Assembly: GCA_050262615.1 (NCBI GenBank)
Contig: JBLNEL010000411.1
Location: 1 to 62,452 of the forward strand
Origin: Bacillota bacterium
GTDB lineage: Bacteria > Bacteroidota > Ignavibacteria > Ignavibacteriales > SURF-24
Length of the DNA: 62,452 nt
Reading direction: 5' to 3'
Below the pieces are notes generated by a model. It had not been told where the DNA came from. It did not search any database and worked only from the letters and a program-made list of their open reading frames with translations. Positions within the stretch are counted from its first letter, which is position 1; every line of letters starts with the position of its first letter. A program made the translations under genes and the position numbers. This document shows, piece after piece, positions 6,381 through 62,452 of the stretch.

Positions 6381-6384
6381 CAAA

Positions 6385-39928: not shown

Positions 39929-41770
39929 TTACTTCAAGAGAACCATGGATTTTGTTTCCATCTTATCGCCTGCACTCAGGCGGAAGTAATATACGCCGCT
40001 GGCCAAATCTGCGGCATTAAAAGAGACCTCATAGGTTCCCTGGCTTTTATAGTCATCGACGAGTGTATTAACTAATTGTCCTAAGGAATTAAAGACGTTC
40101 AGTTTAACATTTTCAGGATTTTGTATCCTGAATTTTATTACAGTCTGTGAGTTAAAAGGGTTAGGATAATTCTGGTAGAGTTCAAAAGAGCGTGCTGAGG
40201 TCAGTTCAGCTTCAACGCTTACCACCGGTATACCTGAATAGATGACACGGAAGGCGTTTGCAACAATTTTATTACTGCTGCCAGAGCCATTTACTGAGAT
40301 TACAACCTCGCCGCTGTTAGCCAGGGATAATGATCCAAGGAGGTTCCATTTTGCGCCGTCAATTCTCTGATCAACAACTTTTTCAAGCACATTTCCTCCG
40401 CCTTTAAGTGTAACTCTTGCATCAGAGGCATTGCCTGAATTTGCCGGCCACCAGGCGTAGATATCATACTTGCCTTTTCCAATCATAGAAGTCGAATAGA
40501 CAGCATCTCCGGCTCCGCTGTTTGCAGAAGTAAAGCGGAAGCTATTTCCGAAGAAGTCATTTCCTGAACTGTCCTTAGTCCAGAGTAAAGAGGTCTGAGG
40601 GTCATTCAGTATTACTCTTTTAGGATGTGAAATTTGCAGGTATTCAGCAATCGAGTAGACTGTTCTTTCGCCAAGTTTTGCAAGGTTCAGGCTATCGACG
40701 AGGCTTCCGGTAGAATAATAGTCATATGGTGTTTCATACGTCAGAGCTATGGTCTTATCGTTCCAGTTCTTCCATTGCCAACCTTCAGGATAAACTGGAG
40801 AGAGGTTTGAGTAGCTGAAGTCGCTGGATTTAAAGTAATCAATATCAGAAATATTAATGTTTGAAAACTGCAATTGCTTTCTATAAAACAAGTTAGAAGT
40901 AGAAAGGGCAGTATGTATCCAGAAAGTGCAGAACTGGGCAGCCTGCGAGTGCAGGTTCAGTAAAACCTTAATTGGTTTTTGTAAATTTATACTATTCATT
41001 CTCTGTTTTAGTAAAACCACTTCCCTGCTTGAAGCTGAGTCCGGTCTGTTCCAGTCAGATTCAAGATCAACGTAATCAAAATTTGTGCGGGATCTGCCGT
41101 AAAATACTCCATCCGGGTTAGTAAAGGGAACGCAGTGGAATACAAGGTTTTTCAGGTAATAGTTTATTACATCGTCATTACTAAGGAGAGTCTTCATTAT
41201 TCCGTCAAAATGCCAGGATGAGGGAGTCTCACCAGGGTGAGTGCGTGCATGAATCCATATATGTTCTTTAAGAGAGTCTGGTACCGAGCGGTCAGTTACT
41301 TTTATTTCATATAGCGGGAGGTTTCGTTTTGTATAGCCAATAGTATCTAAGGAGACCATAGGGTTAGCCTTCCATTCCGAAACTCTTTTATTCAGGCAGC
41401 TTAATGTATAAGGCGTATAGTATGCCACATAAACTGAGTCTTCAGTGTAGGTTTTTTCAAAAGTGTTTCTCAAAGGGCTTTCCTGGAGGGTATACCGCTG
41501 GAAGTTCATATTATCAAATGAATACATTGCGCGCAGAACATCGCTATTGGATATCTTAACCCTGACAAATTTATTTTTTATACCTTTCATTTTGAAATAA
41601 AACCATCTGCCTCCAATATCAGTCCGGGTTTTCACAGTGTAGGTAACAGAGTCAGTTGCGGTGACAGATTCGATATTTCCGCTTTCGAAGTCAGAACTGA
41701 ATTCTACCTGTGAAAAGCAAAGTGAAGATAAAACAGCAAGCAAAAGAAGTGGCCGTAAGATACACATCAT
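39929..41770 (-). CDS. M14-family zinc carboxypeptidase with a CBM-like domain and a T9SS CTD
   Basis: The HxxE zinc motif occurs in IHARTHPGETPSS. I start at ATG 41770 (MMCILRPLLLL, signal-like) rather than the upstream 41836 of the track. The C-terminus LYQNYPNPFNSQTVIKFRI..YYFRLSAGDKMETKSMVLLK is a T9SS CTD. Confidence 0.72.
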   Translation of the reverse strand: MMCILRPLLLLAVLSSLCFSQVEFSSDFESGNIESVTATDSVTYTVKTRTDIGGRWFYFKMKGIKNKFVRVKISNSDVLRAMYSFDNMNFQRYTLQESPLRNTFEKTYTEDSVYVAYYTPYTLSCLNKRVSEWKANPMVSLDTIGYTKRNLPLYEIKVTDRSVPDSLKEHIWIHARTHPGETPSSWHFDGIMKTLLSNDDVINYYLKNLVFHCVPFTNPDGVFYGRSRTNFDYVDLESDWNRPDSASSREVVLLKQRMNSINLQKPIKVLLNLHSQAAQFCTFWIHTALSTSNLFYRKQLQFSNINISDIDYFKSSDFSYSNLSPVYPEGWQWKNWNDKTIALTYETPYDYYSTGSLVDSLNLAKLGERTVYSIAEYLQISHPKRVILNDPQTSLLWTKDSSGNDFFGNSFRFTSANSGAGDAVYSTSMIGKGKYDIYAWWPANSGNASDARVTLKGGGNVLEKVVDQRIDGAKWNLLGSLSLANSGEVVISVNGSGSSNKIVANAFRVIYSGIPVVSVEAELTSARSFELYQNYPNPFNSQTVIKFRIQNPENVKLNVFNSLGQLVNTLVDDYKSQGTYEVSFNAADLASGVYYFRLSAGDKMETKSMVLLK

Positions 41771-41884
41771 GATTTCCGCATAAATTGTATTAAAACTGGG
41801 ATAAATATAATAAAAATCTTTGTAGAAGTATTTCAACTTTAGAAAGGAAAGTTTAATTTAGTTGACCTTAAATAAAATGGAATA

Positions 41885-48360: not shown

Positions 48361-49410
48361 ATGGAAAACGTCAAAGTTGTTATTTGGGGTTTCGGCGCTA
48401 TGGGAAGCGGTATGGCCAGAATGCTTCTTACAAAAAAAGGTGTTGAGATAGTTGGGGTCTGCGACCTTCATCCGGAAAGAGTAAATAAAAGTGTCTTTGA
48501 AGTTTTAGGGGTTGAAAGAGGTCAAAGGAAAGAAGTTATAATAAAAGATGACATAAATGAAGTTCTTACCGAGAAATGCTGTGACGTATGTCTGTGTGCA
48601 ACAGACTCATTTACAAAGAAAGCATTCCCACGCTTAAAGCTGGCTCTTGAGAAAAAAGTAAATGTAATATCGACTGCCGAAGAAATGGCATATCCGAAAG
48701 CGCAGGCACCTGAGCTTGCATGTGAACTTGACAGGATAGCAAAAGAAAATGGTGTTACAATCTTAGGCACCGGAATTAATCCCGGATTTATAATGGATCT
48801 GCTTGTTATCTGCATGACAGGCTGCATGACAGAAGTTAAAGAAATTGAAGCTAAAAGAGTAAACAGTCTCTCTCCATTTGGTCCTGCTGTGATGGAAGAG
48901 CAGGGAGTAGGAATAGCAGTTGACAAATTCAATGAAGGTGTCAGGAGCGGTTCACTTGCCGGGCATGTTGGTTTTGCCGAGTCGATCAATATGATTGGAG
49001 ATGCAATTGGCTGGAAGGTAGAGAAATATGAGACGCAGATGAGTCCAATAGTAACAGATGTAGACAGAAAGTCGCCATATGGTTTTGCAAAAGCAGGAAA
49101 CGTAGCCGGAGTCAATATGACAGGACAGGGGTATGTTGATGGAAAGCCAATAATCAACATGATCCATCCTCAGCAGATAGAGCCTGAAATGGCAGGTGTT
49201 CATACAGGTGATTACGTAACAATAAAAGGCACTCCAGAGGTTAATCTTTCGATAAAGCCGGAGGTGCAGGGTGGTCTTGGAACAATTGCAATGTGTGTAA
49301 ACATGATACCGCATGTAATAAATGCAAAGCCGGGTTTAAAGACAATGATAGATCTTCCGGTGCCGAGGGCTATCATGGGTGATATGAGAGAGATGGTCGA
49401 AAGAAATTAA
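48361..49410 (+). CDS. ord: 2,4-diaminopentanoate dehydrogenase
   Basis: 349 aa. N-terminal Rossmann VKVVIWGFGAMGSGMARML, DapB-like. It is the first gene of an operon whose order and sizes match the Clostridium sticklandii ornithine-degradation cluster. AGGAGA RBS. Confidence 0.8.
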   Translation: MENVKVVIWGFGAMGSGMARMLLTKKGVEIVGVCDLHPERVNKSVFEVLGVERGQRKEVIIKDDINEVLTEKCCDVCLCATDSFTKKAFPRLKLALEKKVNVISTAEEMAYPKAQAPELACELDRIAKENGVTILGTGINPGFIMDLLVICMTGCMTEVKEIEAKRVNSLSPFGPAVMEEQGVGIAVDKFNEGVRSGSLAGHVGFAESINMIGDAIGWKVEKYETQMSPIVTDVDRKSPYGFAKAGNVAGVNMTGQGYVDGKPIINMIHPQQIEPEMAGVHTGDYVTIKGTPEVNLSIKPEVQGGLGTIAMCVNMIPHVINAKPGLKTMIDLPVPRAIMGDMREMVERN

Positions 49411-49432
49411 ACCGGATTAAAAGGGAACAATA

Positions 49433-49738
49433 ATGTTTAAGGCTAAAAAAGGTGACTGGGTACAGATCCATCAGATAGTTCTTGACGCAAGTCAAAGGGC
49501 TCCGCATCTTCCTGAGGATACAAAGCAGGTGCCTCTGGAACTATGGGTTAAAGGGGTTCTGCTTCAGGATGCAGGAGAGGGTGATGAAGTTGAAATTGAG
49601 ACTCTCACAGGCAGAAAAGTCAGAGGAAGATTAGTGCAAGTAAATCCCGGTTACACACATGATTACGGAAGCTTTGTCGAGGAACTTCAGAAGGTTGGTC
49701 CAAAGCTAAGGGCAATACTTTACGGAGGTGAAAAATGA
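49433..49738 (+). CDS. ortA: 2-amino-4-ketopentanoate thiolase, alpha subunit
   Basis: 101 aa. KKGDWVQIHQIVL..VPLELWVKG..VNPGYTHDYGSFV. It overlaps ortB by 4 nt (ATGA coupling). Confidence 0.8.
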   Translation: MFKAKKGDWVQIHQIVLDASQRAPHLPEDTKQVPLELWVKGVLLQDAGEGDEVEIETLTGRKVRGRLVQVNPGYTHDYGSFVEELQKVGPKLRAILYGGEK

Positions 49739-51153
49739 AAGACCGTTCATATCAAGCCGTAATGAGCCGTAAGAATGAGATAATGAAGAAGGCAATTGGC
49801 ATTGATTACGCGAAGTTTGAGTCAGGCAGCATAGCATTTGATTATGAAACGATGATGTGTGAAGCCGGATATTGCTTAGAAGAGATACAAAAAATTCAGG
49901 AGAGCGTAAGTGTCGGCAATACTCCGCTTATAGAGCTGAAGAACATTACGGCACTTGCAAGGAAATATTCTGCAAAAGGAAAGGGCGGAAGAATATTTAT
50001 AAAAGATGAAGCATGCAATCCATCGGGAAGTTTCAAGGCAAGGCGAGCTGCGACTGCAGTATATCATGCAAAAAAGCTTGGATATAAGGGAGTAATTGCA
50101 GCTACAAGCGGAAACTATGGAGCTGCGGTTGCATCACAGGCGGCAATGCAGGGATTAAAATGTATAATTGTTCAGGAGTGTTACGACAGTAAGATGACCG
50201 GGCAGCCTGAAATTCTTGAAAAGCAAAGGGCCTGTGAGGCTTACGGTGCCGAGGTAGTGCAGCTAACAGTTGGTCCGGAGCTATTTTACACATTCTTATG
50301 TCTTTTAGAAGATACGGGATACTTTAATGCCTCGCTTTACACGCCCTTTGGAATTGCAGGAGTTGAGACACTGGGATACGAACTGGCAATCCAGGTAAGA
50401 TCCAAGTATGGGAAATTCCCAGACAAGGTTGTAATAACACATGCAGGCGGCGGAAACGTTACCGGTACAGCAAGGGGGCTTATAAAAGCAGGAAGCGATA
50501 AAACCGAAGTAATCGGAGCAAGTGTGGATCTGTCCGGTCTTCATATGGCTTCAGACAAGGCATTTAATTTAAAGTCATTTACAACCGGGCATACGGGTTT
50601 CGGAATTCCTTTTGCGACATGGCCTGACAGGGCAGACGTTCCAAGGAATGCAGCCAGGCCATTGCGATACATGGACCGTTATGTGCTTATAAGGCAGGGT
50701 GAAGTTTTCTATATGACAGAAGCTTTAGCGCAGTTAGAGGGATTAGAAAGAGGTCCGGCCGGCAACACTTCACTTACGGCTGCCTTCAGTCTTGCGCAGC
50801 AAATGAATGAGGATGAAATAATTGTTGTGCAGGAAACAGAATATACTGGTGCCGGAAAGCATCCATTGCCGCAGCTAAGCTTTGCAAGGAGAAACGGAAT
50901 TGAAATTTTAACTGGCAATCCTGAGGAGGAAATTCCCGGGAAGAATATTGTACTTCCGGAAGACCCATCGATGATAAAGCTAAGGGATTTTGATCTTCAG
51001 AAAGCCAGAGCTTCATATCTTAAGAACTGCATTGCAAATTATAATATAAAACAGATCACAGAAGAAGATCTGGAGTTCATTGCAAAAGATATTAAGACGG
51101 ATAATCAGACAATCCTAAGTATGCTGAATGAATTGGAGATAAGCATTCAGTAA
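49735..51153 (+). CDS. ortB: 2-amino-4-ketopentanoate thiolase, beta subunit (PLP-dependent, Trp-synthase-beta fold)
   Basis: 472 aa. PLP-Lys context NPSGSFKARRA and Gly-rich loop THAGGGNVTG. The operon position is consistent. Confidence 0.8.
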   Translation: MKDRSYQAVMSRKNEIMKKAIGIDYAKFESGSIAFDYETMMCEAGYCLEEIQKIQESVSVGNTPLIELKNITALARKYSAKGKGGRIFIKDEACNPSGSFKARRAATAVYHAKKLGYKGVIAATSGNYGAAVASQAAMQGLKCIIVQECYDSKMTGQPEILEKQRACEAYGAEVVQLTVGPELFYTFLCLLEDTGYFNASLYTPFGIAGVETLGYELAIQVRSKYGKFPDKVVITHAGGGNVTGTARGLIKAGSDKTEVIGASVDLSGLHMASDKAFNLKSFTTGHTGFGIPFATWPDRADVPRNAARPLRYMDRYVLIRQGEVFYMTEALAQLEGLERGPAGNTSLTAAFSLAQQMNEDEIIVVQETEYTGAGKHPLPQLSFARRNGIEILTGNPEEEIPGKNIVLPEDPSMIKLRDFDLQKARASYLKNCIANYNIKQITEEDLEFIAKDIKTDNQTILSMLNELEISIQ

Positions 51154-51157
51154 ACTC

Positions 51158-51200
51158 AATCCCCTGAGCTTTTAATAAAAGTCAGGGGATTTTCTATTTT
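51158..51200 (+). terminator. Intra-operon terminator-like hairpin between ortB and oraS
   Basis: aatcccctga / tcaggggatt forms a 10-bp stem with a 14-nt loop, followed by ttctatttt. It starts 5 nt after the ortB stop. Confidence 0.5.
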
Positions 51201-51231
51201 AAGACAAAATTATTAAAGAAGGATAAAGCAG

Positions 51232-51606
51232 ATGAAACGTTCAGATGACTTTGAAGTCAGAAGAAAACATTTAGCCACTCTGACAGATGAAGAATTAAAG
51301 GAAAGGTTCTGGAAACTGGCAGAAAAAATTGTTGAGCCTATGTTAGAATTAGGCTACAGGAACACTACTCCAGCAATCGAAAGAAGTATTCTTTTAAGAA
51401 TGGGTTTTTCAAGTCTTGAAGTTAAACCGATTGTTGAAGGTGTAATAAATAAAGGTCTTATTAAGTATGGTGCCGGAAATGTCATCTGGAGGCTTTCGAA
51501 AAAGCTGGGCATAAGTGTAAGACAAGCAGGCCTGGAGTTAGCAGAAGGAAAGCATTGGGAAGACTTAGAAGAGCTTTTTCAGCCCAGTTACACACACAAT
51601 AGTTAA
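51232..51606 (+). CDS. oraS: D-ornithine 4,5-aminomutase, small (S) subunit
   Basis: 124 aa, directly upstream of the large B12 subunit. RSDDFEVRRKHLATLTDEELKERFW is typical of the OraS N-terminus as I recall it. Confidence 0.82.
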   Translation: MKRSDDFEVRRKHLATLTDEELKERFWKLAEKIVEPMLELGYRNTTPAIERSILLRMGFSSLEVKPIVEGVINKGLIKYGAGNVIWRLSKKLGISVRQAGLELAEGKHWEDLEELFQPSYTHNS

Positions 51607-51630
51607 AATATACTTTCGGGAGATAAGACA

Positions 51631-53832
51631 ATGAAATTAGATATAAATAAAAAGATCGATATCAAAGAGCTTCTAGAGGGGCTTGAAAAATATGAACCGC
51701 GCAGGCGCGGGTGGCACTGGAGAGAAGGAAGAAACGAAAAGAGAGTAATAGGAGACTTTGAGTTTCATGAGACTTCAGAGGGGTTAAAAAACTATGTGCC
51801 TCTTCCAGGCTCCAGAGGATTTAATTACATTGATCCGCAGCCTGATTGTGTAATCACAACTGAAATAGCTTCAGGGCGTTTTGAGGACGATATACGCCGA
51901 ATGAGGATGGCTGCATGGCATGGTGCTGATCATATAATGGTAATCAGAACTGCAGGTCAGTCTCACATAGACTCACTGCTTGAAGGCACAACACAAGGCA
52001 TCGGCGGAATAGCTGTTACACGTAAACAGGTAAGGGCCAGCCGTAAGGCGCTTGATATGATTGAAGACGAAGTAGGGCGTCCGATAAACTTTCATTCATA
52101 CATCTCCGGAGTTGCAGGGCCTGATATAGCTGTGATGTTTGCAGAAGAAGGTGTTAACGGTGCACACCAGGATCCACAGTATAATGTACTCTACAGAAAT
52201 GTCAATATGGTAAGAAGCTTTGCCGATGCATGTGAGGCAAAAAAAATCATGGCATGGGCTGACATGCTTCAGATAGATGGGGCACATAATGCAAATGCAA
52301 CTGCAATGAAGGCCTGGAAAGTAAGACCTGAACTTATGGTTCAGCATGCAATCAATTGTATGTTTTCAAAGAAAGTAGGAATTAAGCCTGAGAATATTGC
52401 GCTTTCAACTGTGCCGCCTACAGCGCCGCCTGCTCCATGTATGAGACTTGATCTTGCATATGCGGTTGCGCTGCGTGACTTATTTACAGAATATAAAATG
52501 CGTGCTCAGCAGAATACAAAGTATATGGAATCAGATATGAGGGAAGCAACTGTCTCTCATACACTTAACCTTATGATATCGAGGCTTACCAGTGCTGATA
52601 TTCAGTCGACCATTACGCCTGATGAAGGGCGCAATGTTCCATGGCATTACAACAATATTGCAGCTATCAGCACGGCCAAGCAGGCATTAAACGGAATGGA
52701 TGGTCTGCGTGAGATGGTTAAGCTTGATATGGAAGGTCCTTTAGGCAGTGATGTACGTGAGCTTAAGGAGAGGGCTGTTCTTTTTATGGAAGAGATACTC
52801 GAAACCGGCGGGTACTTCAATGCTGTCGAGAATGGTTTCTTTATTGACAGCGGTTATTATCCTGAAAGAAATGGCGATGGCATTCCCAGGAAGATCGAAG
52901 GCGGTATAGGTTATGGATATGTATTTGAAAGAGATCCTGAATATTTTGCCCCGGTATCAGTACACTACGGATATAACAACATTCCGAAGGAATATCAAAA
53001 AGCAAGCGATGCAATAGGCGGTGATACATTCGAAGACCGTTCAAAGATACAATATATTGATGAGCTTGACGAAACAGATAATGTTAATACAAGGTTGAAG
53101 GACGTTGAGAAGTATGATGATCCAAAATTACTTAAGCCTGAAGTAGAGTGGAAAGCTGACGGGATAGTTTCAACGACAATATTCCTTCCATGCGATGAGC
53201 GCACAGCTGAGTTTGCAGCCATTAAGTGCGGTGAAAAAATGGGACTTGAAGATGTAACGGTTGTACACAAGCAGTCGATTCACCCATCAGAAGGCACATT
53301 AGTAGAGATAAAAGGGAGAGTAAAGTTCGATATAAACGTAAATGAACTTATAATTCCTGAAAAGATATCTGTTTTATCGGATCAGGAGATACGAGAAGCA
53401 ATAAGTGAAAGGCCGATGTTTATAGTTGCAGCTACAGTAGGGCAGGATGAGCATTCGGTAGGATTAAAAGAGACTCTGGATATAAAGCATGGCGGGATAG
53501 AGAAGTTCGGTATAAAATATCTATATCTTGGCACTTCATGTTCGATTGAAAAGCTGGTAGATGCGGCAATTGAAACAAATGCAGATGCAATTTTGGCAAG
53601 TACAATTATCACTCATGATGATGTACACATAAAGAACATGAAGAAATTGAATGAGCTTTGCATTGAAAAAGGCATAAGAGAGAGGATAATGCTGGTATGC
53701 GGCGGAACGCAGGTTACAAATGAAATTGCTGTGGAAGCCGGAATGGATGCAGGTTTTGGACGCGGAAGTCATGGAAATGATGTTGCAAGTTTTCTGGTTA
53801 AGAGAAGGAAGGAAATATTAAATGCACATTGA
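51631..53832 (+). CDS. oraE: D-ornithine 4,5-aminomutase, large (E) subunit (PLP and adenosylcobalamin dependent)
   Basis: 733 aa. A TIM-barrel N-terminal part is followed by a C-terminal Rossmann-like B12-binding domain (VAATVGQDEHSVGLKE with the DxHxxG-type base-off motif, then LVCGGTQV). Confidence 0.88.
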   Translation: MKLDINKKIDIKELLEGLEKYEPRRRGWHWREGRNEKRVIGDFEFHETSEGLKNYVPLPGSRGFNYIDPQPDCVITTEIASGRFEDDIRRMRMAAWHGADHIMVIRTAGQSHIDSLLEGTTQGIGGIAVTRKQVRASRKALDMIEDEVGRPINFHSYISGVAGPDIAVMFAEEGVNGAHQDPQYNVLYRNVNMVRSFADACEAKKIMAWADMLQIDGAHNANATAMKAWKVRPELMVQHAINCMFSKKVGIKPENIALSTVPPTAPPAPCMRLDLAYAVALRDLFTEYKMRAQQNTKYMESDMREATVSHTLNLMISRLTSADIQSTITPDEGRNVPWHYNNIAAISTAKQALNGMDGLREMVKLDMEGPLGSDVRELKERAVLFMEEILETGGYFNAVENGFFIDSGYYPERNGDGIPRKIEGGIGYGYVFERDPEYFAPVSVHYGYNNIPKEYQKASDAIGGDTFEDRSKIQYIDELDETDNVNTRLKDVEKYDDPKLLKPEVEWKADGIVSTTIFLPCDERTAEFAAIKCGEKMGLEDVTVVHKQSIHPSEGTLVEIKGRVKFDINVNELIIPEKISVLSDQEIREAISERPMFIVAATVGQDEHSVGLKETLDIKHGGIEKFGIKYLYLGTSCSIEKLVDAAIETNADAILASTIITHDDVHIKNMKKLNELCIEKGIRERIMLVCGGTQVTNEIAVEAGMDAGFGRGSHGNDVASFLVKRRKEILNAH

Positions 53833-55195
53833 TGTATTGGTAGCCGAGATAGGCAGCACTACAACTATAGTAAATGCATTTGATAAGATAAAGGAGTCCG
53901 CAAACGGCGGATCTGGTATGCCGGTATTTTTAGGACAGGGACAGGCGCCTACAAGTGTCCTTCAGGGAGATGTAAGGGTTGGATTAAAAGGGGCTATCGA
54001 AAGTCTTAAGAAGAATCTTAATACTGATGATATCACCTGGGAAGAGATGCTCGCAACAAGCAGTGCCGCAGGCGGCTTAAGAATGTCTGTACATGGATTA
54101 GTTTACGATATGACTGTCCGTGCAGCCAAGGAAGCGGCCTTAGGTGCAGGAGCAATAGTAAAACTTATTACAGCCGGAAAGATGCGAAGAAGCGATCTGA
54201 AGAAAGTCCAGGAATTAAATCCCAATATAATCCTGGTAGCAGGCGGAGTAGATTTTGGAGAGAGAGAGACTGCGCTTAGTAACTTTGAGCAGATTGCCAC
54301 TTTAAGGCTTAATGTCCCTGTAATTTATGCCGGCAATATTGAAAATCACGAAGAAATAAAAGCAATTGCAGAAGAATCGGCAATAAAGCTCTACATAGTA
54401 GAGAATGTATATCCAAAAGTAGACATGCTGAATGTTGAGCCTGCAAGGAAAGTTATACAGCAGGTATTTGAAGAGCATATAACTCATGCTCCGGGAATGT
54501 CGAAAGTGAGGGAAATGGTAGACGGGCCTATTATTCCTACTCCCGGATCAGTAATGCAGGCAGCAAGATTGTTAAAAGAAACAATTGGAGACCTGGTTGT
54601 TTTTGATGTAGGCGGGGCAACAACAGATGTTCATTCAGTAACAGAAGATTCAGAAGAAATCAGCCGAATACTAGTGAATCCTGAGCCAACAGCCAAAAGG
54701 ACCGTAGAAGGGGATCTAGGGGTATTTGTCAATATGAGACATGTAGTAGAAAAGATTGGCATAGATGAGCTTATAAGAGAATTTCCAGATGTAAATGAAT
54801 TAATTGAAAATATAAAAGCTATTCCTGAGTCCATAAGGGAGAAAGAATTTATTGAAAGGCTTACAAAAGAAGCCGTATTAACATCACTTGAGCGTCATGC
54901 AGGAAGCCTGCGGAATTACTATGGTCTTTCGGGAAAGAAGACAGTTGCAGAAGGAAAAGATCTGACGAATGTAAAGAATATAATAGGTACCGGCGGCGCA
55001 CTTACAAGGCTGCCTAAAAGAGAAGAGATATTAAAGCAGGTAAGGACATATGGAAAAGGAGAGCAGCTATTTCCGAAGCATGAAGCGAGAATACTTATTG
55101 ATAATCATTACATAATGGCCTCACTCGGAGTCTTATCAAAAAGATATCCCGAGGCGGCAGTAATGTTGTTAAAAAGGAGTCTGGAGGTTATTTAG
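53822..55195 (+). CDS. GlmL/MutL-family protein (putative aminomutase reactivase/chaperone)
   Basis: 457 aa. ASKHA-like N-terminus VLVAEIGSTTTIVNAF and a second phosphate motif VFDVGGATTDVHS. It overlaps oraE by 11 nt. This position corresponds to the glutamate-mutase MutL-like gene of ornithine clusters. Confidence 0.7.
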   Translation: MHIDVLVAEIGSTTTIVNAFDKIKESANGGSGMPVFLGQGQAPTSVLQGDVRVGLKGAIESLKKNLNTDDITWEEMLATSSAAGGLRMSVHGLVYDMTVRAAKEAALGAGAIVKLITAGKMRRSDLKKVQELNPNIILVAGGVDFGERETALSNFEQIATLRLNVPVIYAGNIENHEEIKAIAEESAIKLYIVENVYPKVDMLNVEPARKVIQQVFEEHITHAPGMSKVREMVDGPIIPTPGSVMQAARLLKETIGDLVVFDVGGATTDVHSVTEDSEEISRILVNPEPTAKRTVEGDLGVFVNMRHVVEKIGIDELIREFPDVNELIENIKAIPESIREKEFIERLTKEAVLTSLERHAGSLRNYYGLSGKKTVAEGKDLTNVKNIIGTGGALTRLPKREEILKQVRTYGKGEQLFPKHEARILIDNHYIMASLGVLSKRYPEAAVMLLKRSLEVI

Positions 55196-55262
55196 TCCAT
55201 AGTCCAAGGTCCAAAGTCCATAGTCCAAAGTCCATAGTCCATAGTCCAAGGTCGAAAGGTTA
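55193..55262. repeat. Heptanucleotide tandem repeat tract, unit WRGTCCA, 8 good plus 2 degenerate units
   Basis: TAGTCCA TAGTCCA AGGTCCA AAGTCCA TAGTCCA AAGTCCA TAGTCCA TAGTCCA AGGTCGA AAGGTTA. The first TAG is the stop codon of the GlmL-like gene. Confidence 0.9.
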
Positions 55263-55338
55263 AGATCTGGATAGTTAAAGGGTGGGGAGTTGTTTTGGTT
55301 CAATGAAATTAATGGGGTAAAACAGGTAGAAAATAATT

Positions 55339-56400
55339 ATGAGTTATCCTGCACTGATTATAGACAAAGAAAAAGTCAGACATAATACTGCACTGCTTGT
55401 TGATAAGTGTAAAGAACATGGGGTCAGTGTTGCAGCAGTAAGCAAGGTTTTCTGCGGAATTGCAGAAGTTGCCCAGGCCATGGTTGATGGGGGCGCTGCT
55501 ATGATAGCAGATTCAAGGCTTGAGAACCTGAAAAAGCTGCAGTCGATAAAAGTGCCAAAGATGCTTCTTCGGATTCCGATGAAGTCTCAGGCAGGTCAGA
55601 TTATTAAATATGCTGATATAAGTCTTAATTCAGAAATTGAAACGATAAGAGCAATCTCAGAAGAAGCCATAAAGCAGGGGAAAGTTCATAATATTATTTT
55701 AATGACTGATCTGGGAGATCTGCGTGAAGGCGTGTGGAGTGAGAACATCGTGGAATTTGCAGGCGAGGTGCTTTGCTTAAAAGGCATAAGGCTCAAAGGT
55801 TTAGGAACAAATCTTACCTGCTATGGCGGAGTAATTCCAAATCAGGACAATCTGTGCAAGCTTATAGCGCTTGCCAGGCAGATAGAAGAAAGGTATAATA
55901 TAAAGCTTGATATTATTTCAGGCGGAAATTCAAGCAGCCTTCACCTTATTTTTAAAGATCAGATGCCAGAGGGGATAAACCAGCTAAGGCTGGGCGAGTC
56001 GATAGTGCTTGGCCTGGAGACTGCATTTGGTGAGAGGATAGAAGGCACATACCGGGATGCATTTACCTTTGCTGCAGAGATAGTAGAAATAAAAGAAAAG
56101 CCAACTGTGCCTGTTGGAGAAATAGGGATGGATGCATTTGGTCAGAAGCCTGTATTTGAAGATAAAGGAAAGCGCAGGCGAGGGATTTTAGCTGCAGGGC
56201 GACAGGATATAAATATTAATGGCATTATTCCAAGAGACAAATGCATCAGCATTTTCGGCGGGAGCAGTGATCATCTTTTAGTTGACTTTACAGACTGCAG
56301 AAGCTGTTATAAAATAGGTGATATAATTGAATTTGATCTTACCTACGGCGGACTACTGGCAGCTGCTACATCAGAATATGTGGAAAAAATCATAATCTAA
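55339..56400 (+). CDS. orr: Ornithine racemase (alanine-racemase-fold PLP enzyme)
   Basis: 353 aa. PLP-Lys context VAAVSKVFCG in an alanine-racemase-like N-terminal barrel. It is the last gene of the ornithine cluster. Specificity is inferred from context. Confidence 0.65.
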   Translation: MSYPALIIDKEKVRHNTALLVDKCKEHGVSVAAVSKVFCGIAEVAQAMVDGGAAMIADSRLENLKKLQSIKVPKMLLRIPMKSQAGQIIKYADISLNSEIETIRAISEEAIKQGKVHNIILMTDLGDLREGVWSENIVEFAGEVLCLKGIRLKGLGTNLTCYGGVIPNQDNLCKLIALARQIEERYNIKLDIISGGNSSSLHLIFKDQMPEGINQLRLGESIVLGLETAFGERIEGTYRDAFTFAAEIVEIKEKPTVPVGEIGMDAFGQKPVFEDKGKRRRGILAAGRQDININGIIPRDKCISIFGGSSDHLLVDFTDCRSCYKIGDIIEFDLTYGGLLAAATSEYVEKIII

Positions 56401-56549
56401 AAAAGTTAATTAATATAATGTTAAAAAATTTATCAGTAAAACCTTTGAAATAGCACTAAAATTCAAGAGTGCTAAAATTCTGAACAGTTTAAAAAGTCTT
56501 ACAAACCTAAATCCTCTTAAAATCCTTCCGAAAAAGCATATTATTTATC

Positions 56550-56565
56550 TGGCATATTCCTTGCA
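56550..56565 (+). promoter_or_regulatory. Sigma-54 (RpoN) -24/-12 promoter
   Basis: TGGCAT-attcc-TTGCA matches the consensus TGGCAC-N5-TTGCW with exact spacing and one mismatch. It lies 35 nt upstream of ATG 56600, with the RBS AGGGGAG in between. Confidence 0.55.
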
Positions 56566-56599
56566 TTACCAGTTATAATCAGCATTAGGGGAGAATAGT

Positions 56600-57595
56600 A
56601 TGCAAAAGAGAATATTACTTATCGACGATGAATCTTCAATAAGAAGATCTCTTTCTTTAAGTCTCAATCAGGCAGGATATGATGTTGAACCCTGTGAAAG
56701 CGGTCTGACGGCACTCAACAAAATTGATCTTTACCAAAAGAATTCAGTTAATCTTGATACGGTTGTGGTGGATCTGAATCTTCCGGATATTGATGGAATA
56801 AAGCTTGGAAAGATAATAAAATCAAAGTATCCGGATATTCCAATGATGTATATAACAGGCTATGCTGATAAATTGCAGATAACAGAAATTGATGAGCTTA
56901 AGACAGCAGGCCTACTTGAAAAGCCCTTTACATCAGATGATCTGGTAAAACAAATAAACAAACTCCTTCAGCCGCAGCTTAAGCGGGCAGAGAAAAAAGA
57001 AGAAGAAAAAGCAGCTGCAAAGGCAACCTCGGCCTATATACTTATAAAAACCAAAGAGGGTTCAGATTACCTTTCGCTTTACAGAAAACTTTACTTTATG
57101 GATAATGTGCTTTATTGTGATGCCACAAGCGGGGAGATTGATATTTTTCTTTTAATTCAGGCCTCTTCAGAGGAAGAATGCAAAAAAGTTTATGAAAACA
57201 GTGTTAAAAATCTTGAAGGAATAAAAGAATCATTATTTCTTCAGGTTGATGTTCCAGTAATGGATGACAGTATAAGAGACATTGTTCAATCTGCAGGCAT
57301 TTCACTTTTTGATGACACATCCGGAGCAGGGAAACTGAGGGATTCAAAGAAAGCCGTATACTCCTATCTGCTATTAGATATAGACCGGGAGAAGCTGGAT
57401 AAAATCTATCCGGTGCTCAGGCTTACAGATAACGTACTATATTGTGATTATGCAGAAGGTAAGTACAATCTGATATTAATGCTTTATGCGACTCAGTTCA
57501 GCGAGATAAACAGGATAATTGAAAATAAAATACTAACACTAGACGGAGTACTGAAGGTTAGGAAGTATCCGGTTGTCAATATGTTTGAAATATAG
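56600..57595 (+). CDS. Response-regulator receiver fused to two Lrp/AsnC-type ligand-binding (RAM) domains, with no DNA-binding domain
   Basis: The REC domain has all conserved residues (DD in LLIDDES, phospho-Asp in VVVDLNLPD, T in MYITGY, K in LEKPF). A charged linker follows (KRAEKKEEEKAAAKA). Two repeats of about 75 aa come next (AYILIKTKEG..VLYCDATSGEIDIFLLIQ and SYLLLDIDRE..VLYCDYAEGKYNLILMLY) with a beta-alpha-beta-beta-alpha-beta RAM-like pattern. No HTH is visible. Confidence 0.7.
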   Translation: MQKRILLIDDESSIRRSLSLSLNQAGYDVEPCESGLTALNKIDLYQKNSVNLDTVVVDLNLPDIDGIKLGKIIKSKYPDIPMMYITGYADKLQITEIDELKTAGLLEKPFTSDDLVKQINKLLQPQLKRAEKKEEEKAAAKATSAYILIKTKEGSDYLSLYRKLYFMDNVLYCDATSGEIDIFLLIQASSEEECKKVYENSVKNLEGIKESLFLQVDVPVMDDSIRDIVQSAGISLFDDTSGAGKLRDSKKAVYSYLLLDIDREKLDKIYPVLRLTDNVLYCDYAEGKYNLILMLYATQFSEINRIIENKILTLDGVLKVRKYPVVNMFEI

Positions 57596-57621
57596 ACCTG
57601 GTTTTCTAAAAAGGAGAGCAT

Positions 57622-58158
57622 ATGGCAGAAACTGAAATTGATGATAAAGCTGAAATTGTTGGTAAAGCAGAATATGCTGAAACTACAGATGTGTTACAGG
57701 CGGAAATATTAAATTTTAAGATAGACCTGATAAGCCGTCATCATAAAAGTGACTCACTGATTCCTCTTTTGCAGTCGGCGCAGGACTGCTATGGTTACAT
57801 ACCTGAAAAGGTCATCTATTATATAAGTGAGATCGTAGGGATTCCGGCCTCAGAGATATATGGGGTTATTACATTCTATGCACAGTTTCGCCTGAAGCCT
57901 CTAGGAAAAAACATAATAAAAGTCTGTCAGGGCACGGCATGTCATGTCAACGGTGCAAAAACTGTTCTCTCGGCGCTTGAGGATGAACTTGGTATAACGA
58001 TAGGTGAAACGACAGATGAGGGATTATTTTCTTTAGAATCTGTTGCATGCTTAGGCTGTTGTTCTTTAGCTCCGGTAATGATGATTAACGATGAGACATA
58101 TGGAAACCTTACATCAGATAAGATCAAAAGGACAATTAAAAAATTCCGATCAGCATAA
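57622..58158 (+). CDS. NuoE/HydC/HndA-like thioredoxin-fold [2Fe-2S] subunit
   Basis: CQGTACHVNG and ACLGCCSLAPVMMIND cluster motifs. The acidic N-terminal extension is about 40 aa. AAGGAGA RBS. Confidence 0.85.
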   Translation: MAETEIDDKAEIVGKAEYAETTDVLQAEILNFKIDLISRHHKSDSLIPLLQSAQDCYGYIPEKVIYYISEIVGIPASEIYGVITFYAQFRLKPLGKNIIKVCQGTACHVNGAKTVLSALEDELGITIGETTDEGLFSLESVACLGCCSLAPVMMINDETYGNLTSDKIKRTIKKFRSA

Positions 58159-58178
58159 TAAGCTCGCGGGAATCAGAA

Positions 58179-59942
58179 ATGAAAAAAATTAAAGTAGGTT
58201 TAGGTACATGCGGCATTTCAGCCGGTGGTATCCAGGTATTTGAAAAAATCAAATCGGAGTTAGTAAATAAAGGTCTGGATTATGAACTCTCAGAGACCGG
58301 CTGCATGGGTATGTGTTATGAAGAAGTCCTGGTAGAAGTTGAAGATGATCTTAGCAGTTCACTTTATTCAAAAGTAACGGTTGACAAAGCAGGGCGAATA
58401 GTAAATGAGCATCTTATAAACAACAATCCAATAAAGGAATGGATAATAAAAACAGGGGATTATTGCAAGGAAGAGTCTTTTCTCAAAAAACAGACAAGGA
58501 TTGTCTTAAGGAACTGCGGAGCAATTAATCCTTCATCAATTGAAGATTACATTGAAAAAGGGGGCTATAAGGCAATAGAGAAAGTGTTAAGGGAGTATTC
58601 ACCTGAAAGAGTAATAGATGAGGTAACACGTTCAGGTTTAAGGGGGCGCGGCGGCGGAGGTTTTCTTACAGGGCAGAAGTGGAGATTTGCATTCAGTGAA
58701 AATTCAGATCAAAAGTATTTAATCTGCAATGCTGATGAAGGTGATCCGGGTGCATTTATGGACCGGAGTGTACTTGAGGGGGATCCTCATTCGGTACTGG
58801 AAGGGATGATGATTGCAGCCTATGCAATCGGAGCAGATAAGGCTTTTATTTATGTAAGAGCTGAGTATCCGTGGGCTATTAAAAGGCTAAGGAATGCATT
58901 AGTGCAGATGAAAGAAAAAGGGCTTTCAGGTGAAAATATTTTTGGAAGCAGTTTCAGTCTGGAGATAAAGATAAAAGAAGGAGCCGGAGCATTTGTCTGC
59001 GGAGAGGAAACTGCGCTTATGCAGTCTATTGAAGGCAAAAGAGGAGTACCAAGATTAAGGCCGCCGTTTCCTACGCATAAAGGATTATGGGAGAAGCCGA
59101 CAGTAATAAACAATGTAGAGACATATGCAAATCTTCCATGGATAATAGTCAATGGTTATGAAAAGTATGCAGCCTTAGGAACAGAAAAAAGCAAAGGCAG
59201 CAAAGTTTTCGCTTTAGCAGGCAGGATAAAAAGGACAGGGCTTGTAGAAGTTCCGATGGGAATAACCATAAATGAGATCGTTTATGATATAGGCGGAGGA
59301 ATAAAGGATAACAAAAAATTTAAGGCTGTACAGATAGGAGGTCCTTCGGGCGGGTGTATACCCTCGAGCATGGGAGACTTAAAAATAGATTATGATGAGA
59401 TCACCCGTACCGGTGCAATAATGGGTTCAGGCGGGCTTATTGTAATTGATGAGACAACCTGCATGGTTGATTTTGCCAGGTTCTTCTTAAACTTCACTCA
59501 GCATGAATCATGCGGCAAGTGCACTTTCTGCCGTATCGGGACAAAGAGAATGCTTGAAATATTAGAAAGGATAACTGAAGGCAAGGGAAAAGAAACTGAT
59601 ATTGAGCTGCTTGAAGACCTTGCAAAGAAAGTAAGCAGGGGCAGTCTCTGCGGGCTTGGACAGACAGCGCCAAATCCAGTACTGACAACCTTAAAGTATT
59701 TCAGGGATGAATACGAGGCCCACATCATTCATAAGAAATGTCCGGCTCACAGCTGTTCATCGCTTATTACATACAGTATAATCGATGAAATGTGCAAAGG
59801 CTGCGGAGTATGTATAAAGCAATGTCCAACAGGTGCTATAACCGGGAGTAAAAAGGAAGTTCATAAAATTAACAATGATCTGTGCATTAAGTGCGGAAAG
59901 TGTTTTGAAGTATGCAGATTAGATGCAGTAAAAGTCACTTAG
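58179..59942 (+). CDS. NuoF/HydB/HndC-like NADH-binding FMN flavoprotein with an extra N-terminal 2Fe-2S-like domain and two C-terminal [4Fe-4S] motifs
   Basis: GLRGRGGGGFLTGQKW, CNADEGDPGAFMDR, ESCGKCTFCRIGT, CKGCGVCIKQCPTGAI and CIKCGKCFEVC. The N-terminal region is GLGTCGISAGG..CMGMCYEE. Confidence 0.9.
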   Translation: MKKIKVGLGTCGISAGGIQVFEKIKSELVNKGLDYELSETGCMGMCYEEVLVEVEDDLSSSLYSKVTVDKAGRIVNEHLINNNPIKEWIIKTGDYCKEESFLKKQTRIVLRNCGAINPSSIEDYIEKGGYKAIEKVLREYSPERVIDEVTRSGLRGRGGGGFLTGQKWRFAFSENSDQKYLICNADEGDPGAFMDRSVLEGDPHSVLEGMMIAAYAIGADKAFIYVRAEYPWAIKRLRNALVQMKEKGLSGENIFGSSFSLEIKIKEGAGAFVCGEETALMQSIEGKRGVPRLRPPFPTHKGLWEKPTVINNVETYANLPWIIVNGYEKYAALGTEKSKGSKVFALAGRIKRTGLVEVPMGITINEIVYDIGGGIKDNKKFKAVQIGGPSGGCIPSSMGDLKIDYDEITRTGAIMGSGGLIVIDETTCMVDFARFFLNFTQHESCGKCTFCRIGTKRMLEILERITEGKGKETDIELLEDLAKKVSRGSLCGLGQTAPNPVLTTLKYFRDEYEAHIIHKKCPAHSCSSLITYSIIDEMCKGCGVCIKQCPTGAITGSKKEVHKINNDLCIKCGKCFEVCRLDAVKVT

Positions 59943-60005
59943 TCCAAAGTCCATCACGCCGGAGGCGGGAGTCCGAGGTCCATAGTTCATAGTCCAAAGT
60001 CATGA
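59940..60005. repeat. Second WRGTCCA heptamer tract, interrupted by a GC-rich insert
   Basis: TAGTCCA AAGTCCA [tcacgccggaggcggg] AGTCCG AGGTCCA TAGTTCA TAGTCCA AAGTCAT. The first TAG is the stop codon of the NuoF-like gene. Confidence 0.8.
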
Positions 60006-60013
60006 AAAGTAAA

Positions 60014-60043
60014 AAGGTCGTCTGGTCCAAGGTCGTCTAGTCT
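60014..60043. repeat. 15-nt direct repeat x2 (aaggtcgtctggtcc / aaggtcgtctagtct)
   Basis: Read directly from the sequence, immediately downstream of the heptamer tract. Confidence 0.6.
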
Positions 60044-60158
60044 AAACTGACGCACGGACTGATTATTTATTACGGACGGATTTGGGGGCAGAGAGAGTAC
60101 AAGGTTATTTAGTCTGTTTACGGGGGATTTGCTGGTTTAAGAATAAAGCAGGTGGTAT

Positions 60159-62452
60159 ATGGAAGAGGTCAAAATAGTAATTAATGGAGTAGAAGTTATA
60201 GCCTCAGAAGAGGATACGATCCTGGAAGCCGTGCATAAAAGCGGGCTTGACCAAATTCCTACTCTATGTCACGATAAAAGACTTGAACATTATACATCCT
60301 GTTATATGTGTGTTGTTGAAGTAGAAGGTTTAAACAAGCTTATTCCATCCTGCTCGACAATAGTCAGAAGCGGTATGAAGATATCGACCAGAAGTAAAGA
60401 TGTAATTGAAACAAGGAAAGCTGCTCTTGAGCTGCTGATGTCAAACCATTATGCAGACTGTATCGGACCATGCCGGAATAATTGTCCTGCCGGAGTAGAT
60501 GCACAGGCATACATTGCTTTAATATCAATGGGGAAATATAAAGACGCCTTAAGGCTGGTAAAAGAGAAGAATCCGCTTCCGCTCTCCATCGGGCGAGTAT
60601 GCGTAAGGGATTGTGAAGCTGCCTGCAGGAGAAAGTATGTAGATGAGCCGGTATCAGTTAATGCATTAAAAAGATTTATTGCCGATCTGGATAATATAAA
60701 CAAATGGACTCCGGAGGTAAAAAAGGATAAGGGGAAAAAAGCTGCAGTCATAGGGAGCGGGCCGGCGGGATTATCATGTGCTTACTACTTAAGGATTGAA
60801 GGATATCAGGTTACAATATTTGAAAAATATCCAAAGCCAGGCGGCATGTTAAGGTACGGGATTCCGGAATACAGGCTGCCGAAGGAAATACTTGATTCGG
60901 AGATAAACTGGATACTTGATCTTGGTATTGAATTAAAAACCAACGTGGAGCTTGGCCGTGATTTCAGTATAAAAAGTTTAATGGAAGGTAATTACGATGC
61001 TGTATTTATTGGAGTAGGAGCTCATAAGGCTACTAAGCTTGGGCTTGAAGGGGAAGATAATACAGAAGGCATATACAGAGGAATTGAATTTTTAAAAGAC
61101 GTAGAAACAGGAAAAATGCCGGGATTAAATGGGAAGGTCGTTGTTGTCGGCGGGGGGAATACAGCAATTGATGCTGCCAGAACGGCCTTAAGGTGCGGAG
61201 CAGATGAGGTTAAAATAGTTTACAGAAGAAGCATAAACGAAATGCCTGCAAACCGTGAAGAAATTGAAGCAGTAATAAAAGAAGGAATTGAAATTCTTTT
61301 TCTTACAAATCCAAAGGCTTTAATTTCAGAAAACAGCAGACTAAAAGCAGTTGAATGTTTAAGGATGCAGCTTATAGAAGGCAAGTCAGGTGAAAGGCCA
61401 AAACCTGTTGCCCTTGCAGGTTCGGAATTTATAATTGACTGCGACTATCTGATAAGTGCAATTGGGCAGGCGGTTGATATCAGTTTCAGTGGGCTGGATA
61501 ATGAATGCAGTCTTGAAAAGTGGGGTACATTAAAAATTAATAAAGAGAGCTTTCAGACAACTATTCCCGGAGTATTTGCCGGTGGTGATGATGTAACAGG
61601 TCCGCTTACAGCTATAAGTGCAATTGCGCAGGGGAAAAAAGCAGCAGAATCTATAATGAACTATTTTCAAACCGGAAAGGCAGGAAATCAAAACGGCAGT
61701 TTTATAAGCTTAAAACATAATCTGGCAGAACTGTCAGAACGTGAATTTGCACTTTATAAAAAAATGCCTAGAGAAAAGTCTGAGGAGCTTCCGGCAGAAG
61801 AAAGGATACATTCATTTAATGAAGTTGAAAAGAGTATAGGTGAGGCACAGGCACACAATGAAGCAGCGCGGTGCCTTGAATGCGGATGTTCAGAGTACTA
61901 CGACTGCAGCTTAAGGCGGTACTGTGATGAATACAAAATAGATATTTCATCATATAAAGGGGAGACAAAGAAATACACTCCTGACTTAAGGCATCCTTTT
62001 ATCTTACTTGATCCTAATAAATGCATAAACTGCGGCAGGTGTGTAAGAACATGTACAGAGGTTCTAAAAGTCTCAGCCCTGGGATTTGTTTACCGCGGTT
62101 TTAAGTCAGTTGTAAAGCCTGCAATGGAGAAGCCCTTACTTGATACAAACTGCATAAGCTGTGGAAATTGTATTGACAGCTGTCCAACAGGAGCTATAAG
62201 TGAAAAGCTGCCATTTAAGGCACCGGGAACACTTCCAAGAGAGAACTTTGAGACTACGTGCAGTTTCTGTTCATTGGGCTGCAAAGTAAACTTCAAAAAA
62301 ATAAGCAATGACCTATTTTACATATCAAATACAACAGACGAAGTAAAGGAGAGTCAAAACAAGGGATATCTCTGTACAAAGGGAAGGTTCGGCTACAGAT
62401 ACTTATTGAGCAGAAACAGGATATTATTTTCAGCAATAAAGACTAATGGGGT
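60159..62452 (+). CDS. Fusion protein: NuoG/FdhA-type 2Fe-2S N-terminus, then a GltD/NfnB-like FAD/NAD(P)H module, then 4Fe-4S ferredoxin motifs, then a molybdopterin-oxidoreductase 4Fe-4S domain (3' end outside the window)
   Basis: Not in the ORF track because no stop codon falls in the window. ATG 60159 follows AGGTGG, and the frame stays open for 764 codons to the window end. Motifs in order: CHDKRLEHYTSCYMCVVEV..PSC; LLMSNHYADCIGPCRNNCPAGVDAQAYI..GRVCVRDCEAAC; AAVIGSGPAGLSCAYYL; VVVVGGGNTAIDAARTA; VFAGGD; RCLECGCSEYYDC; CINCGRCVRTC; CISCGNCIDSCPTGAI; TTCSFCSLGCKVN. Confidence 0.8.
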   Translation, partial: MEEVKIVINGVEVIASEEDTILEAVHKSGLDQIPTLCHDKRLEHYTSCYMCVVEVEGLNKLIPSCSTIVRSGMKISTRSKDVIETRKAALELLMSNHYADCIGPCRNNCPAGVDAQAYIALISMGKYKDALRLVKEKNPLPLSIGRVCVRDCEAACRRKYVDEPVSVNALKRFIADLDNINKWTPEVKKDKGKKAAVIGSGPAGLSCAYYLRIEGYQVTIFEKYPKPGGMLRYGIPEYRLPKEILDSEINWILDLGIELKTNVELGRDFSIKSLMEGNYDAVFIGVGAHKATKLGLEGEDNTEGIYRGIEFLKDVETGKMPGLNGKVVVVGGGNTAIDAARTALRCGADEVKIVYRRSINEMPANREEIEAVIKEGIEILFLTNPKALISENSRLKAVECLRMQLIEGKSGERPKPVALAGSEFIIDCDYLISAIGQAVDISFSGLDNECSLEKWGTLKINKESFQTTIPGVFAGGDDVTGPLTAISAIAQGKKAAESIMNYFQTGKAGNQNGSFISLKHNLAELSEREFALYKKMPREKSEELPAEERIHSFNEVEKSIGEAQAHNEAARCLECGCSEYYDCSLRRYCDEYKIDISSYKGETKKYTPDLRHPFILLDPNKCINCGRCVRTCTEVLKVSALGFVYRGFKSVVKPAMEKPLLDTNCISCGNCIDSCPTGAISEKLPFKAPGTLPRENFETTCSFCSLGCKVNFKKISNDLFYISNTTDEVKESQNKGYLCTKGRFGYRYLLSRNRILFSAIKTNG

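Follow-up and report, generated by a model that had tools for sequence, protein, structure and literature searches.

A probable Stn/NfnABC-type transhydrogenase operon with a predicted sigma-54 promoter and a conserved tandem-RAM regulator gene in an Ignavibacteriota-like bacterium

NAD+-dependent reduction of ferredoxin by NADPH, together with the reverse reaction, has been proven for the enzymes of Sporomusa ovata (Stn), Thermococcus sibiricus and Caldicellulosiruptor saccharolyticus (NfnABC, hereafter Csac) (PMC7483475, PMC9304861, PMC11829005), which form a family named Nfn-Bfu within the Bfu family (PMC9304861). StnC, a protein of 1172 amino acids (aa), consists of a [2Fe-2S] domain (residues 1-101), a GltD module (102-565), a series of NuoG-type clusters and an FdhF-like domain (683-1172) described as catalytically inactive (PMC10482914). 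Purified Stn has zero formate:methyl viologen activity (PMC7483475), and in NfnA of Csac the pterin site is incomplete and no pterin density was seen (PMC11829005). As to the BfuB subunit, a B2 site with a His ligand, an N-terminal thioredoxin fold and a B3/B4 domain separate the bifurcating proteins from non-bifurcating NuoF homologues (PMC9304861, PMC11829005). Three published accounts of Stn/Nfn-Bfu enzymes hold nothing on their control (PMC9304861, PMC11829005, PMC7483475). Here we report that four genes at the end of contig JBLNEL010000411.1, analysed as one stretch of 62,452 nucleotides (nt; the window), very probably belong to a sigma-54-controlled operon for a transhydrogenase of this Stn/NfnABC (Nfn-Bfu) type, whose formate dehydrogenase-like (Fdh-like) domain would carry no cofactor.

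All four genes lie on the plus strand. Gene 1 (56600-57595) encodes a regulator with one REC and two RAM domains (REC-2xRAM), gene 2 (57622-58158) the NuoE-like subunit StnA/NfnC (BfuC), gene 3 (58179-59942) the NuoF-like subunit StnB/NfnB (BfuB) and gene 4, which corresponds to stnC/nfnA (BfuA), begins with an ATG at 60159 and is still open at the window end after 764 codons without a stop. The spacings read from the open reading frames are 26, 20 and 216 nt. An earlier description of this DNA, prepared from its letters without database searches (the sequence-only reading), had placed four co-directional genes at these positions with short gaps between the first three, and had named the products of genes 1 to 3 as REC-RAM, NuoE-like and NuoF-like proteins; the reading frames and the Pfam and NCBIfam profiles agree on each point. 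It had also proposed an NADH- plus NADPH-linked complex of the bifurcating type, which is the right class given the NuoE/NuoF module and the GltD-type subunit, and had considered the architecture undescribed, a view that the comparison of gene 4 does not bear out.

Five Pfam families follow one another along gene 4, namely Fer2_4 (residues 2-79), Fer4_20 (103-179), Pyr_redox_2 (194-492), Fer4_Nqo3 (613-680) and Molybdop_Fe4S4 (698-749). The N-terminal [2Fe-2S] domain (aa 1-101; 60159-60461) carries C37, C48, C51 and C65 and closes at His97/Cys101. Directly behind this His/Cys motif, a GltD/NfnL-like insertion with sites for two [4Fe-4S] clusters, FAD and NADPH occupies aa 102-565 (60462-61853). 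Its FAD motif GSGPAG stands at residue 199 and its NADPH-type motif GGGNTA at 331, the latter followed by VYRRS; an NADPH-type GxGxxA followed by YRR is also present in Csac NfnA, and the whole module matches the NfnB/NfnL structures 4ylf_B and 5jca_L. A cluster chain of the NuoG/HydA type comes next (aa 566-696; 61854-62246), with a CxxCxC...C motif at 572-583 and CxxCxxCxxxC motifs at 622-632 and 665-675. The remaining part (aa 697-764; 62247-62452) is the beginning of an Fdh/NuoG-like domain that ends with the window and includes the Molybdop_Fe4S4 cluster ligands C701, C704, C708 and C739, the first three in a CxxCxxxC motif at 701-708. Every motif quoted for gene 4 in the sequence-only reading (LLMSNHYADC, the GxGxxG of the FAD site, GxGxxA, two CxxCxxCxxxC and CxxCxxxC) was located.

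Residues 3-764 of gene 4 align in a single collinear stretch with residues 3-749 of NfnA (9bov_A; E 1e-209, 45% identity), and the protein is likewise collinear with residues 1-750 of 8oh5_C. The published domain map of StnC coincides with that of gene 4, with the junctions at the same places. Since StnC and NfnA already carry the identical order of fused modules, there is no support for calling the enzyme new: close homologues with the same fusion have been characterised from S. ovata, Csac and an archaeon. The statement that Stn has no pterin domain does not hold either, as residues 683-1172 of StnC form an inactive FdhF-like domain (PMC10482914). The label "putative NADPH-dependent glutamate synthase small subunit" (PRK12814) was tried for gene 4 and rejected; the model covers aa 1-635 and scores 665 bits vs a cut-off of 916.

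The sequence-only reading had further suggested that the Fdh-like domain is an active Mo/W-pterin site, so that a new (con)furcating oxidoreductase would join formate or another substrate to an NADH and an NADPH site. The position equivalent to the catalytic selenocysteine (Sec) or Cys falls beyond the window end, only about 65 residues of the domain being visible, and since gene 4 breaks off at aa 764 we infer the state of this domain from homologues. These number in the thousands; our sample comprised the 117 full-length proteins among the best 120, which are 1236-1279 aa long and 61-73% identical to gene 4. In the alignment with E. coli FdhH, the column of Sec140 holds L, F, I, V, M or S and Cys in none of the 117, while the neighbouring column of His141 holds Y, Q, N, D or K, with Cys in four; one homologue that is 72% identical to gene 4 (P0004), for example, has Val-Tyr at the two positions. 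The homologues do carry a Molybdopterin domain (PF00384) covering the full profile, but the Molydop_binding cap (PF01568) was found neither in Pfam rescans of three of them (P0002, P0004 and P0010) nor in the precomputed domain lists of the homologues listed, and the proteins stop about 60 aa past the region aligned to FdhH residue 509. As they are continuous at about 1250 aa, no Sec stop interrupts them. Each Fe-S cysteine of gene 4, including the four of the [2Fe-2S] domain and all those of the cluster chain, is invariant across the 117 proteins, and the Fdh-like domain is their least conserved region, with a mean identity of 53% vs 68-78% in the other three.

With the metal ligand and the cap domain missing in the homologues, a working pterin site is very unlikely, and the pterin-binding catalytic domain that the sequence-only reading expected downstream is lacking in the full-length homologues. 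Stn and Csac NfnABC, moreover, have the same architecture with neither a pterin nor formate activity. What speaks for a third catalytic site is the Molybdop_Fe4S4 domain in the window, the complete PF00384 profile in the homologues, a resemblance to formate dehydrogenases greater than that of Stn, which includes a retained Arg, and the many homologue records automatically labelled "formate dehydrogenase major subunit". Set against the replaced residues and the lost cap, these features leave the three-site enzyme with hardly any probability, and the Fdh-like domain of gene 4 is likely an inactive, cofactor-less relic.

Genes 2 and 3 appear to supply the bifurcating core. The product of gene 2 matches Pfam 2Fe-2S_thioredx, of the NuoE type, with E 4e-53, has the cysteines of the C1 [2Fe-2S] cluster at C102, C107, C143 and C147, and finds its best matches in the Protein Data Bank (PDB) in 9n5u_C, 9bov_C and 8oh5_A (E 1e-49 to 4e-51). 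Its N-terminal extension, outside the Pfam domain, is acidic and repetitive; it is encoded by an 18-nt tandem repeat of 2.3 copies at 57632-57672, within the first 40 aa.

Gene 3 carries the Pfam domains Complex1_51K and NADH_4Fe-4S, two Fer4 motifs and an N-terminal extension, and is collinear end to end with 9bov_B (62% identity, E 4e-251) and with 8oh5_B. The FMN/NADH fold is marked by GRGGGG at residue 156, and C445, C448, C451 and C491 make up the ligands of the B1 [4Fe-4S] cluster. At the B2 (Cys3His) site, which is Zn-bound in most BfuB structures, the residues C428, T466, H515, C521 and C526 show a spacing identical to that of the NiFe-Bfu ligands C438, C476, H525, C531 and C536. Two CxxCxxCxxxC motifs at 539-549 and 569-579 provide the B3/B4 [4Fe-4S] sites and are collinear with the C-terminal domains of NfnB and StnB. 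The N-terminal thioredoxin fold aligns from residue 3, and three cysteines of its putative B5 site (for [2Fe-2S] or Zn), C11, C42 and C46, are shared with Csac and S. ovata.

The class of the module could be questioned, in that NuoEF might merely act as an NADH dehydrogenase within a non-bifurcating enzyme, be it a simple transhydrogenase between NADPH and NAD+ or a reductase of the NAD(P)H:acceptor kind that resembles SfrAB or the glutamate synthase small subunit. PRK12814 is indeed the top NCBIfam model of gene 4, although below its cut-off. Gene 3, however, has the thioredoxin fold, the Cys3His B2 site and the B3/B4 domain, and relatives at 62% identity to it are proven to bifurcate, which makes a non-bifurcating enzyme improbable and supports the assignment of genes 2 and 3 to the bifurcating-type NuoE/NuoF module.

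For genes 2 to 4, the best PDB matches all fall within 9BOV/9BP5, 8OH5/8OH9 and 9N5U, and we verified 9BOV and 9BP5 as C. saccharolyticus NfnABC entries. Judged by this homology, the most likely activity is that of a reversible NADH-dependent ferredoxin:NADP+ oxidoreductase, which would catalyse 2 NADPH + NAD+ + 2 Fd(ox) <-> 2 NADP+ + NADH + 2 Fd(red) + H+. NADPH would give up its electrons to the FAD in the GltD-like insertion of gene 4, whose Fe-S chain would carry them singly to the core that genes 2 and 3 make up. There, FMN, with clusters B1 and C1, would divide the electrons between NAD+, reduced at the FMN site, and ferredoxin, by way of B3/B4 of gene 3, and the whole reaction would be reversible. 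The Fdh-like domain of gene 4 would remain as a scaffold devoid of cofactor; its counterparts in Stn and Csac NfnABC mediate contacts between subunits and the formation of tetramers.

Upstream of gene 1, a -24/-12 element of the sigma-54 type, TGGCATATTCCTTGCA, lies at 56550-56565 on the plus strand, 35 nt before the ATG. It is the sole exact match to TGGYAY-N5-TTGCW in the window; the sequence-only reading had also placed a sigma-54 element at the head of the operon. At one mismatch the pattern is not enriched (7 found vs 8.3 expected in the window), and because of this an isolated site would be weak as proof. When one genome per species was scanned, 22 related loci came up. All but one of them (21 of 22) come from metagenome-assembled genomes (MAGs) of Ignavibacteriales, Melioribacter, Stygiobacter and Kapaibacterium, with identities of 64-73%; the remaining one (L023, 42% identity) was dropped as a comparator because its third gene, of 588 aa, is too short for the fusion. 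That gene presumably encodes an A subunit of the hydrogenase type.

Fourteen loci, partial ones included, belong to what we call type 1, and 11 of these, with sequence on either flank, show all six genes in the order REC-2xRAM, stnA, stnB, stnC, histidine kinase and a REC-Sigma54_activat-HTH_8 activator. Genes 1 to 4 of the window fit this type. The synteny search that the sequence-only reading had proposed thus recovered the same gene order, and in 12 related loci the genes for the kinase and the REC-AAA+-HTH_8 activator follow stnC directly. In all 13 type 1 loci with upstream sequence, TGGYAY-N5-TTG stands 47-70 nt before the start codon of the REC-RAM gene. The conservation of the element in 13/13 loci and an activator encoded at the operon end together make the promoter call solid, and the operon would be expressed from the sigma-54 promoter at 56550-56565. 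By synteny, it would run on past the window into a gene for a cytoplasmic histidine kinase and then one for an NtrC-type activator, and these two proteins would switch on the operon, their own genes included.

A second group of loci, type 2, is formed by a paralogous stnABC operon that has neither kinase nor activator. It was found in seven loci of Melioribacteraceae and Ignavibacteria MAGs (L011-L016 and L018; for instance 7020-13744 in L016), and its Fdh-like domain shares no more than 41-47% identity with that of type 1. In four of the four loci with upstream sequence, a stand-alone 2xRAM protein of 193 aa, which shares 28-30% identity with the RAM region of gene 1, precedes stnA.

It could still be argued that gene 1 is an unrelated regulator that stands upstream by chance and that the sigma-54 motif is a random match, as the lack of enrichment at one mismatch and the generic annotations of REC-RAM proteins, which are without known function, would allow. 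Against this stand 13 loci from Ignavibacteriales, Melioribacter and Kapaibacterium in which the REC-RAM gene holds its place before stnA, with kinase and activator visible in 11; the promoter element accompanies it in every locus with upstream sequence, and the paralogous operon has its stand-alone 2xRAM protein in the same place in 4/4 loci. We consider chance association very improbable and a functional link between gene 1 and the transhydrogenase genes the better account.

In gene 1, Pfam recognises Response_reg followed by two AsnC_trans_reg (RAM) stretches, and an AlphaFold2 model resolves REC at residues 1-123, RAM1 at 143-218 and RAM2 at 253-326, the two RAM modules being beta-alpha-beta-beta-alpha-beta units. 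The set of phospho-acceptor residues is complete (D9/D10, D58, T86 and K108); among 34 homologues D10, D58 and K108 never vary, and conservation at D9 and T86 is at least 90%. A Foldseek search of the PDB with the model matched the receiver to CheY, PhoP and Spo0F and returned receiver domains only, nothing being found for the RAM pair. Neither Pfam nor the AlphaFold2 model revealed a helix-turn-helix (HTH) or other DNA-binding domain, and since the N-terminus is taken by REC, gene 1 shares only the ligand-binding RAM fold with Lrp/AsnC. A Y-C-D triplet is invariant in both RAM modules (residues 172-174 and 281-283), with C173 and C282 present in all 34 homologues; it is unusual, to our knowledge, for AsnC-type RAM domains to conserve a Cys here. 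The family comprises several hundred proteins of the same lineage, the top-listed of which are labelled only "response regulator", "CheY-like chemotaxis protein" or "hypothetical protein". Orthologues at the same operon position in the 13 loci are 55-68% identical to gene 1, and the gap between the REC-RAM gene and stnA is 26 nt in the window, 17 nt in the called genes of one related locus (L001) and, measured from tblastn coordinates, as much as about 240 nt.

The kinase of the operon was examined in the same locus (L001, 11762-13630). It has 622 aa, Pfam detects only HisKA and HATPase_c, both in the C-terminal part, and on reading the translation no obvious membrane segment is apparent. No Pfam family matches its N-terminal stretch of about 370 aa, in which a CH-x11-C-x2-C motif may be a metal- or redox-sensing site. 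Gene 1 would be a second phospho-acceptor of this kinase. RAM domains typically bind amino acids, and the RAM pair would add sensing of a small molecule, probably an amino acid, to the control of the enzyme or of the signalling pathway. We put forward, tentatively and with the odds rather against it, that the Nfn-Bfu enzymes of Ignavibacteriota have a dedicated tandem-RAM partner that couples a small-molecule signal and phosphorylation to their expression or activity. If so, no dedicated regulator, or fourth subunit, of a Bfu-family transhydrogenase would have been described before this partner; a literature search found no publication on a module of REC-2xRAM protein, kinase and sigma-54 activator.

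Several observations weigh against our assignment of the operon to a sigma-54-controlled Nfn-Bfu transhydrogenase with an inactive Fdh-like domain. The activity and its physiological direction are deduced from homology. The state of gene 4's own Fdh-like domain is taken from homologues that are 61-73% identical, and in this clade the domain is nearer to a genuine formate dehydrogenase (9t1s_L, E 3e-68) than to Stn (3e-49) or NfnA (1e-37) and retains an Arg equivalent to R333 of FdhH. The similarity and the retained Arg indicate a relic that is younger, or has decayed less, than its counterparts in the characterised enzymes. On the regulatory side, the genes of the kinase and the activator fall outside the window; no gene for an AAA+ sigma-54 activator is found within it, the operon exceeding its end. 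Upstream of the promoter, no activator-binding motif or inverted repeat is common to the 13-14 loci. In the window itself, sequence reading and an inverted-repeat scan found TAGCACT-N10-AGTGCTA at 56451-56474 (plus strand), roughly 75 nt before the -24 element, which is possibly an activator-binding site, though a weak candidate.

The spacer between stnB and stnC (59943-60158, plus strand) is unusually long with its 216 nt. By tblastn coordinates the corresponding gap measures 8-32 nt in 16 of the related loci that have both genes; it is 12 nt in the called genes of L001, and in L022 the match is interrupted. The spacer folds no better than shuffled sequence (z = -0.05), an Rfam scan of 56300-60300 at E <= 1 returned zero families, and scans for sigma-70 promoters and terminators stayed at background, with no terminator within the spacer. 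It opens with a loose array of the heptamer (A/G)GTCCA(A/T) at 59940-60045 that starts at the TAG stop of gene 3. Eight copies of the same heptamer lie at 55193-55253, from the TAG stop of or-4 onward. A 17-mer version of the repeat has 10 matches vs 0.08 expected, and among the fetched loci the heptamer recurs solely in contigs of the same organism. A second intergenic array of heptamers, AAGAATT/GAATTAA in about 7.6 copies, lies at 6322-6420 and is followed by a perfect GC-rich hairpin, CAGCCTGCGG...CCGCAGGCTG; this layout of a heptamer array and a GC-rich segment resembles that of the stnB-stnC spacer. The same organism was recovered only on three short Logan contigs, each ending inside genes 2-3, and a 44-mer from the window end had no exact match in metagenome_contigs.

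Immediately upstream, at 48361-56400, the operon is adjoined by a complete cluster for the oxidative (Stickland-type) degradation of ornithine, comprising Ord, OrtB, OraE, the GlmL-related Or-4 and the racemase Orr, all of which exceed their NCBIfam cut-offs. This cluster beside the operon yields NAD(P)H. The adjacency is also seen on the three short contigs of the same organism, and no homologue of Ord, OrtB, OraE, Or-4 or Orr occurs within 10 kb in the 22 related loci. Acetoanaerobium sticklandii, a member of the Clostridia, is the model organism for the ornithine pathway. It is also listed as Stn-bearing (PMC7483475). Elsewhere in the window, two large proteins encoded on the minus strand (39929-41836 and 43548-45995) bear C-terminal type A sorting domains of the type IX secretion system, which support an origin of the window in the FCB group (Bacteroidota/Ignavibacteriota).

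The enzyme itself is not new; our data add Ignavibacteriota-like bacteria to the carriers of the Stn/NfnABC transhydrogenase, and this phylum is absent from the distribution tables that we consulted. In these genomes, an entry named "formate dehydrogenase major subunit" or "FAD-dependent oxidoreductase" is to be taken as the A subunit of an Nfn-Bfu enzyme, and metabolic reconstructions change in that the locus would provide no formate oxidation but a valve that balances NADPH, NADH and ferredoxin. The only fresh, and mildly interesting, aspect is the conserved regulatory module and the persistence of the 2xRAM protein in the paralogous operon.

Among the systems described so far, the NAD+-dependent Mo/W formate dehydrogenases FdsABG and that of R. 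capsulatus (6TG9) likewise join a NuoE/NuoF module to a NuoG/Fdh-type subunit, but they keep the Cys/Sec-His site, the pterin and the cap, whereas the homologues of gene 4 lack the Cys/Sec-His pair and the cap. SfrB is GltD-like, and in SfrAB this GltD is a separate subunit and the NuoEF module is absent. The HydABC enzymes and the Bfu-type [FeFe]- and [NiFe]-hydrogenases have a homologous HydB/HydC core, gene 3 matching 7q4v_B, 7t2r_B and 8a6t_B with E < 1e-210; unlike them, the operon has no H-cluster domain, and its A subunit bears the GltD/NADPH module instead. NfnAB (NfnSL) performs the same overall reaction with a homologous GltD/NfnL-like FAD-NADPH module, yet there the FAD itself bifurcates and no NuoEF core exists, while the GltD module of Stn/NfnABC serves only as an entry for electrons (PMC10482914). 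The archaeal Nfn-Bfu of the Thermococcus sibiricus type (9N5U) shows the same BC core and a GltD-bearing A subunit, which at 963 aa is about 200 residues shorter and without the cysteines of the A4 cluster (PMC9304861); gene 4 is of the long bacterial type. StnABC of S. ovata (8OH5/8OH9; Kremp 2020, Kumar 2023) has the same order of NuoE-like, NuoF-like and fusion subunits, all three align end to end, and the GltD insertion likewise follows the His/Cys motif. The two differ in the length of the fusion (1172 aa for StnC vs about 1250 aa for the homologues of gene 4), in the host, a member of the Firmicutes as opposed to an Ignavibacteriota-like bacterium, and in the surroundings, since metVF and pabAB flank stn, and neither REC-RAM nor two-component neighbours are reported for it (PMC7483475). 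The best overall structural relative is NfnABC of Csac (9BOV/9BP5), to which gene 3 is 62% and gene 4 (aa 1-764) 45% identical; Csac NfnABC has Zn at the B5 site and a different regulatory context, and shares with the operon described here the B1-FMN-C1 flavobicluster core and the B3/B4 ferredoxin arm.

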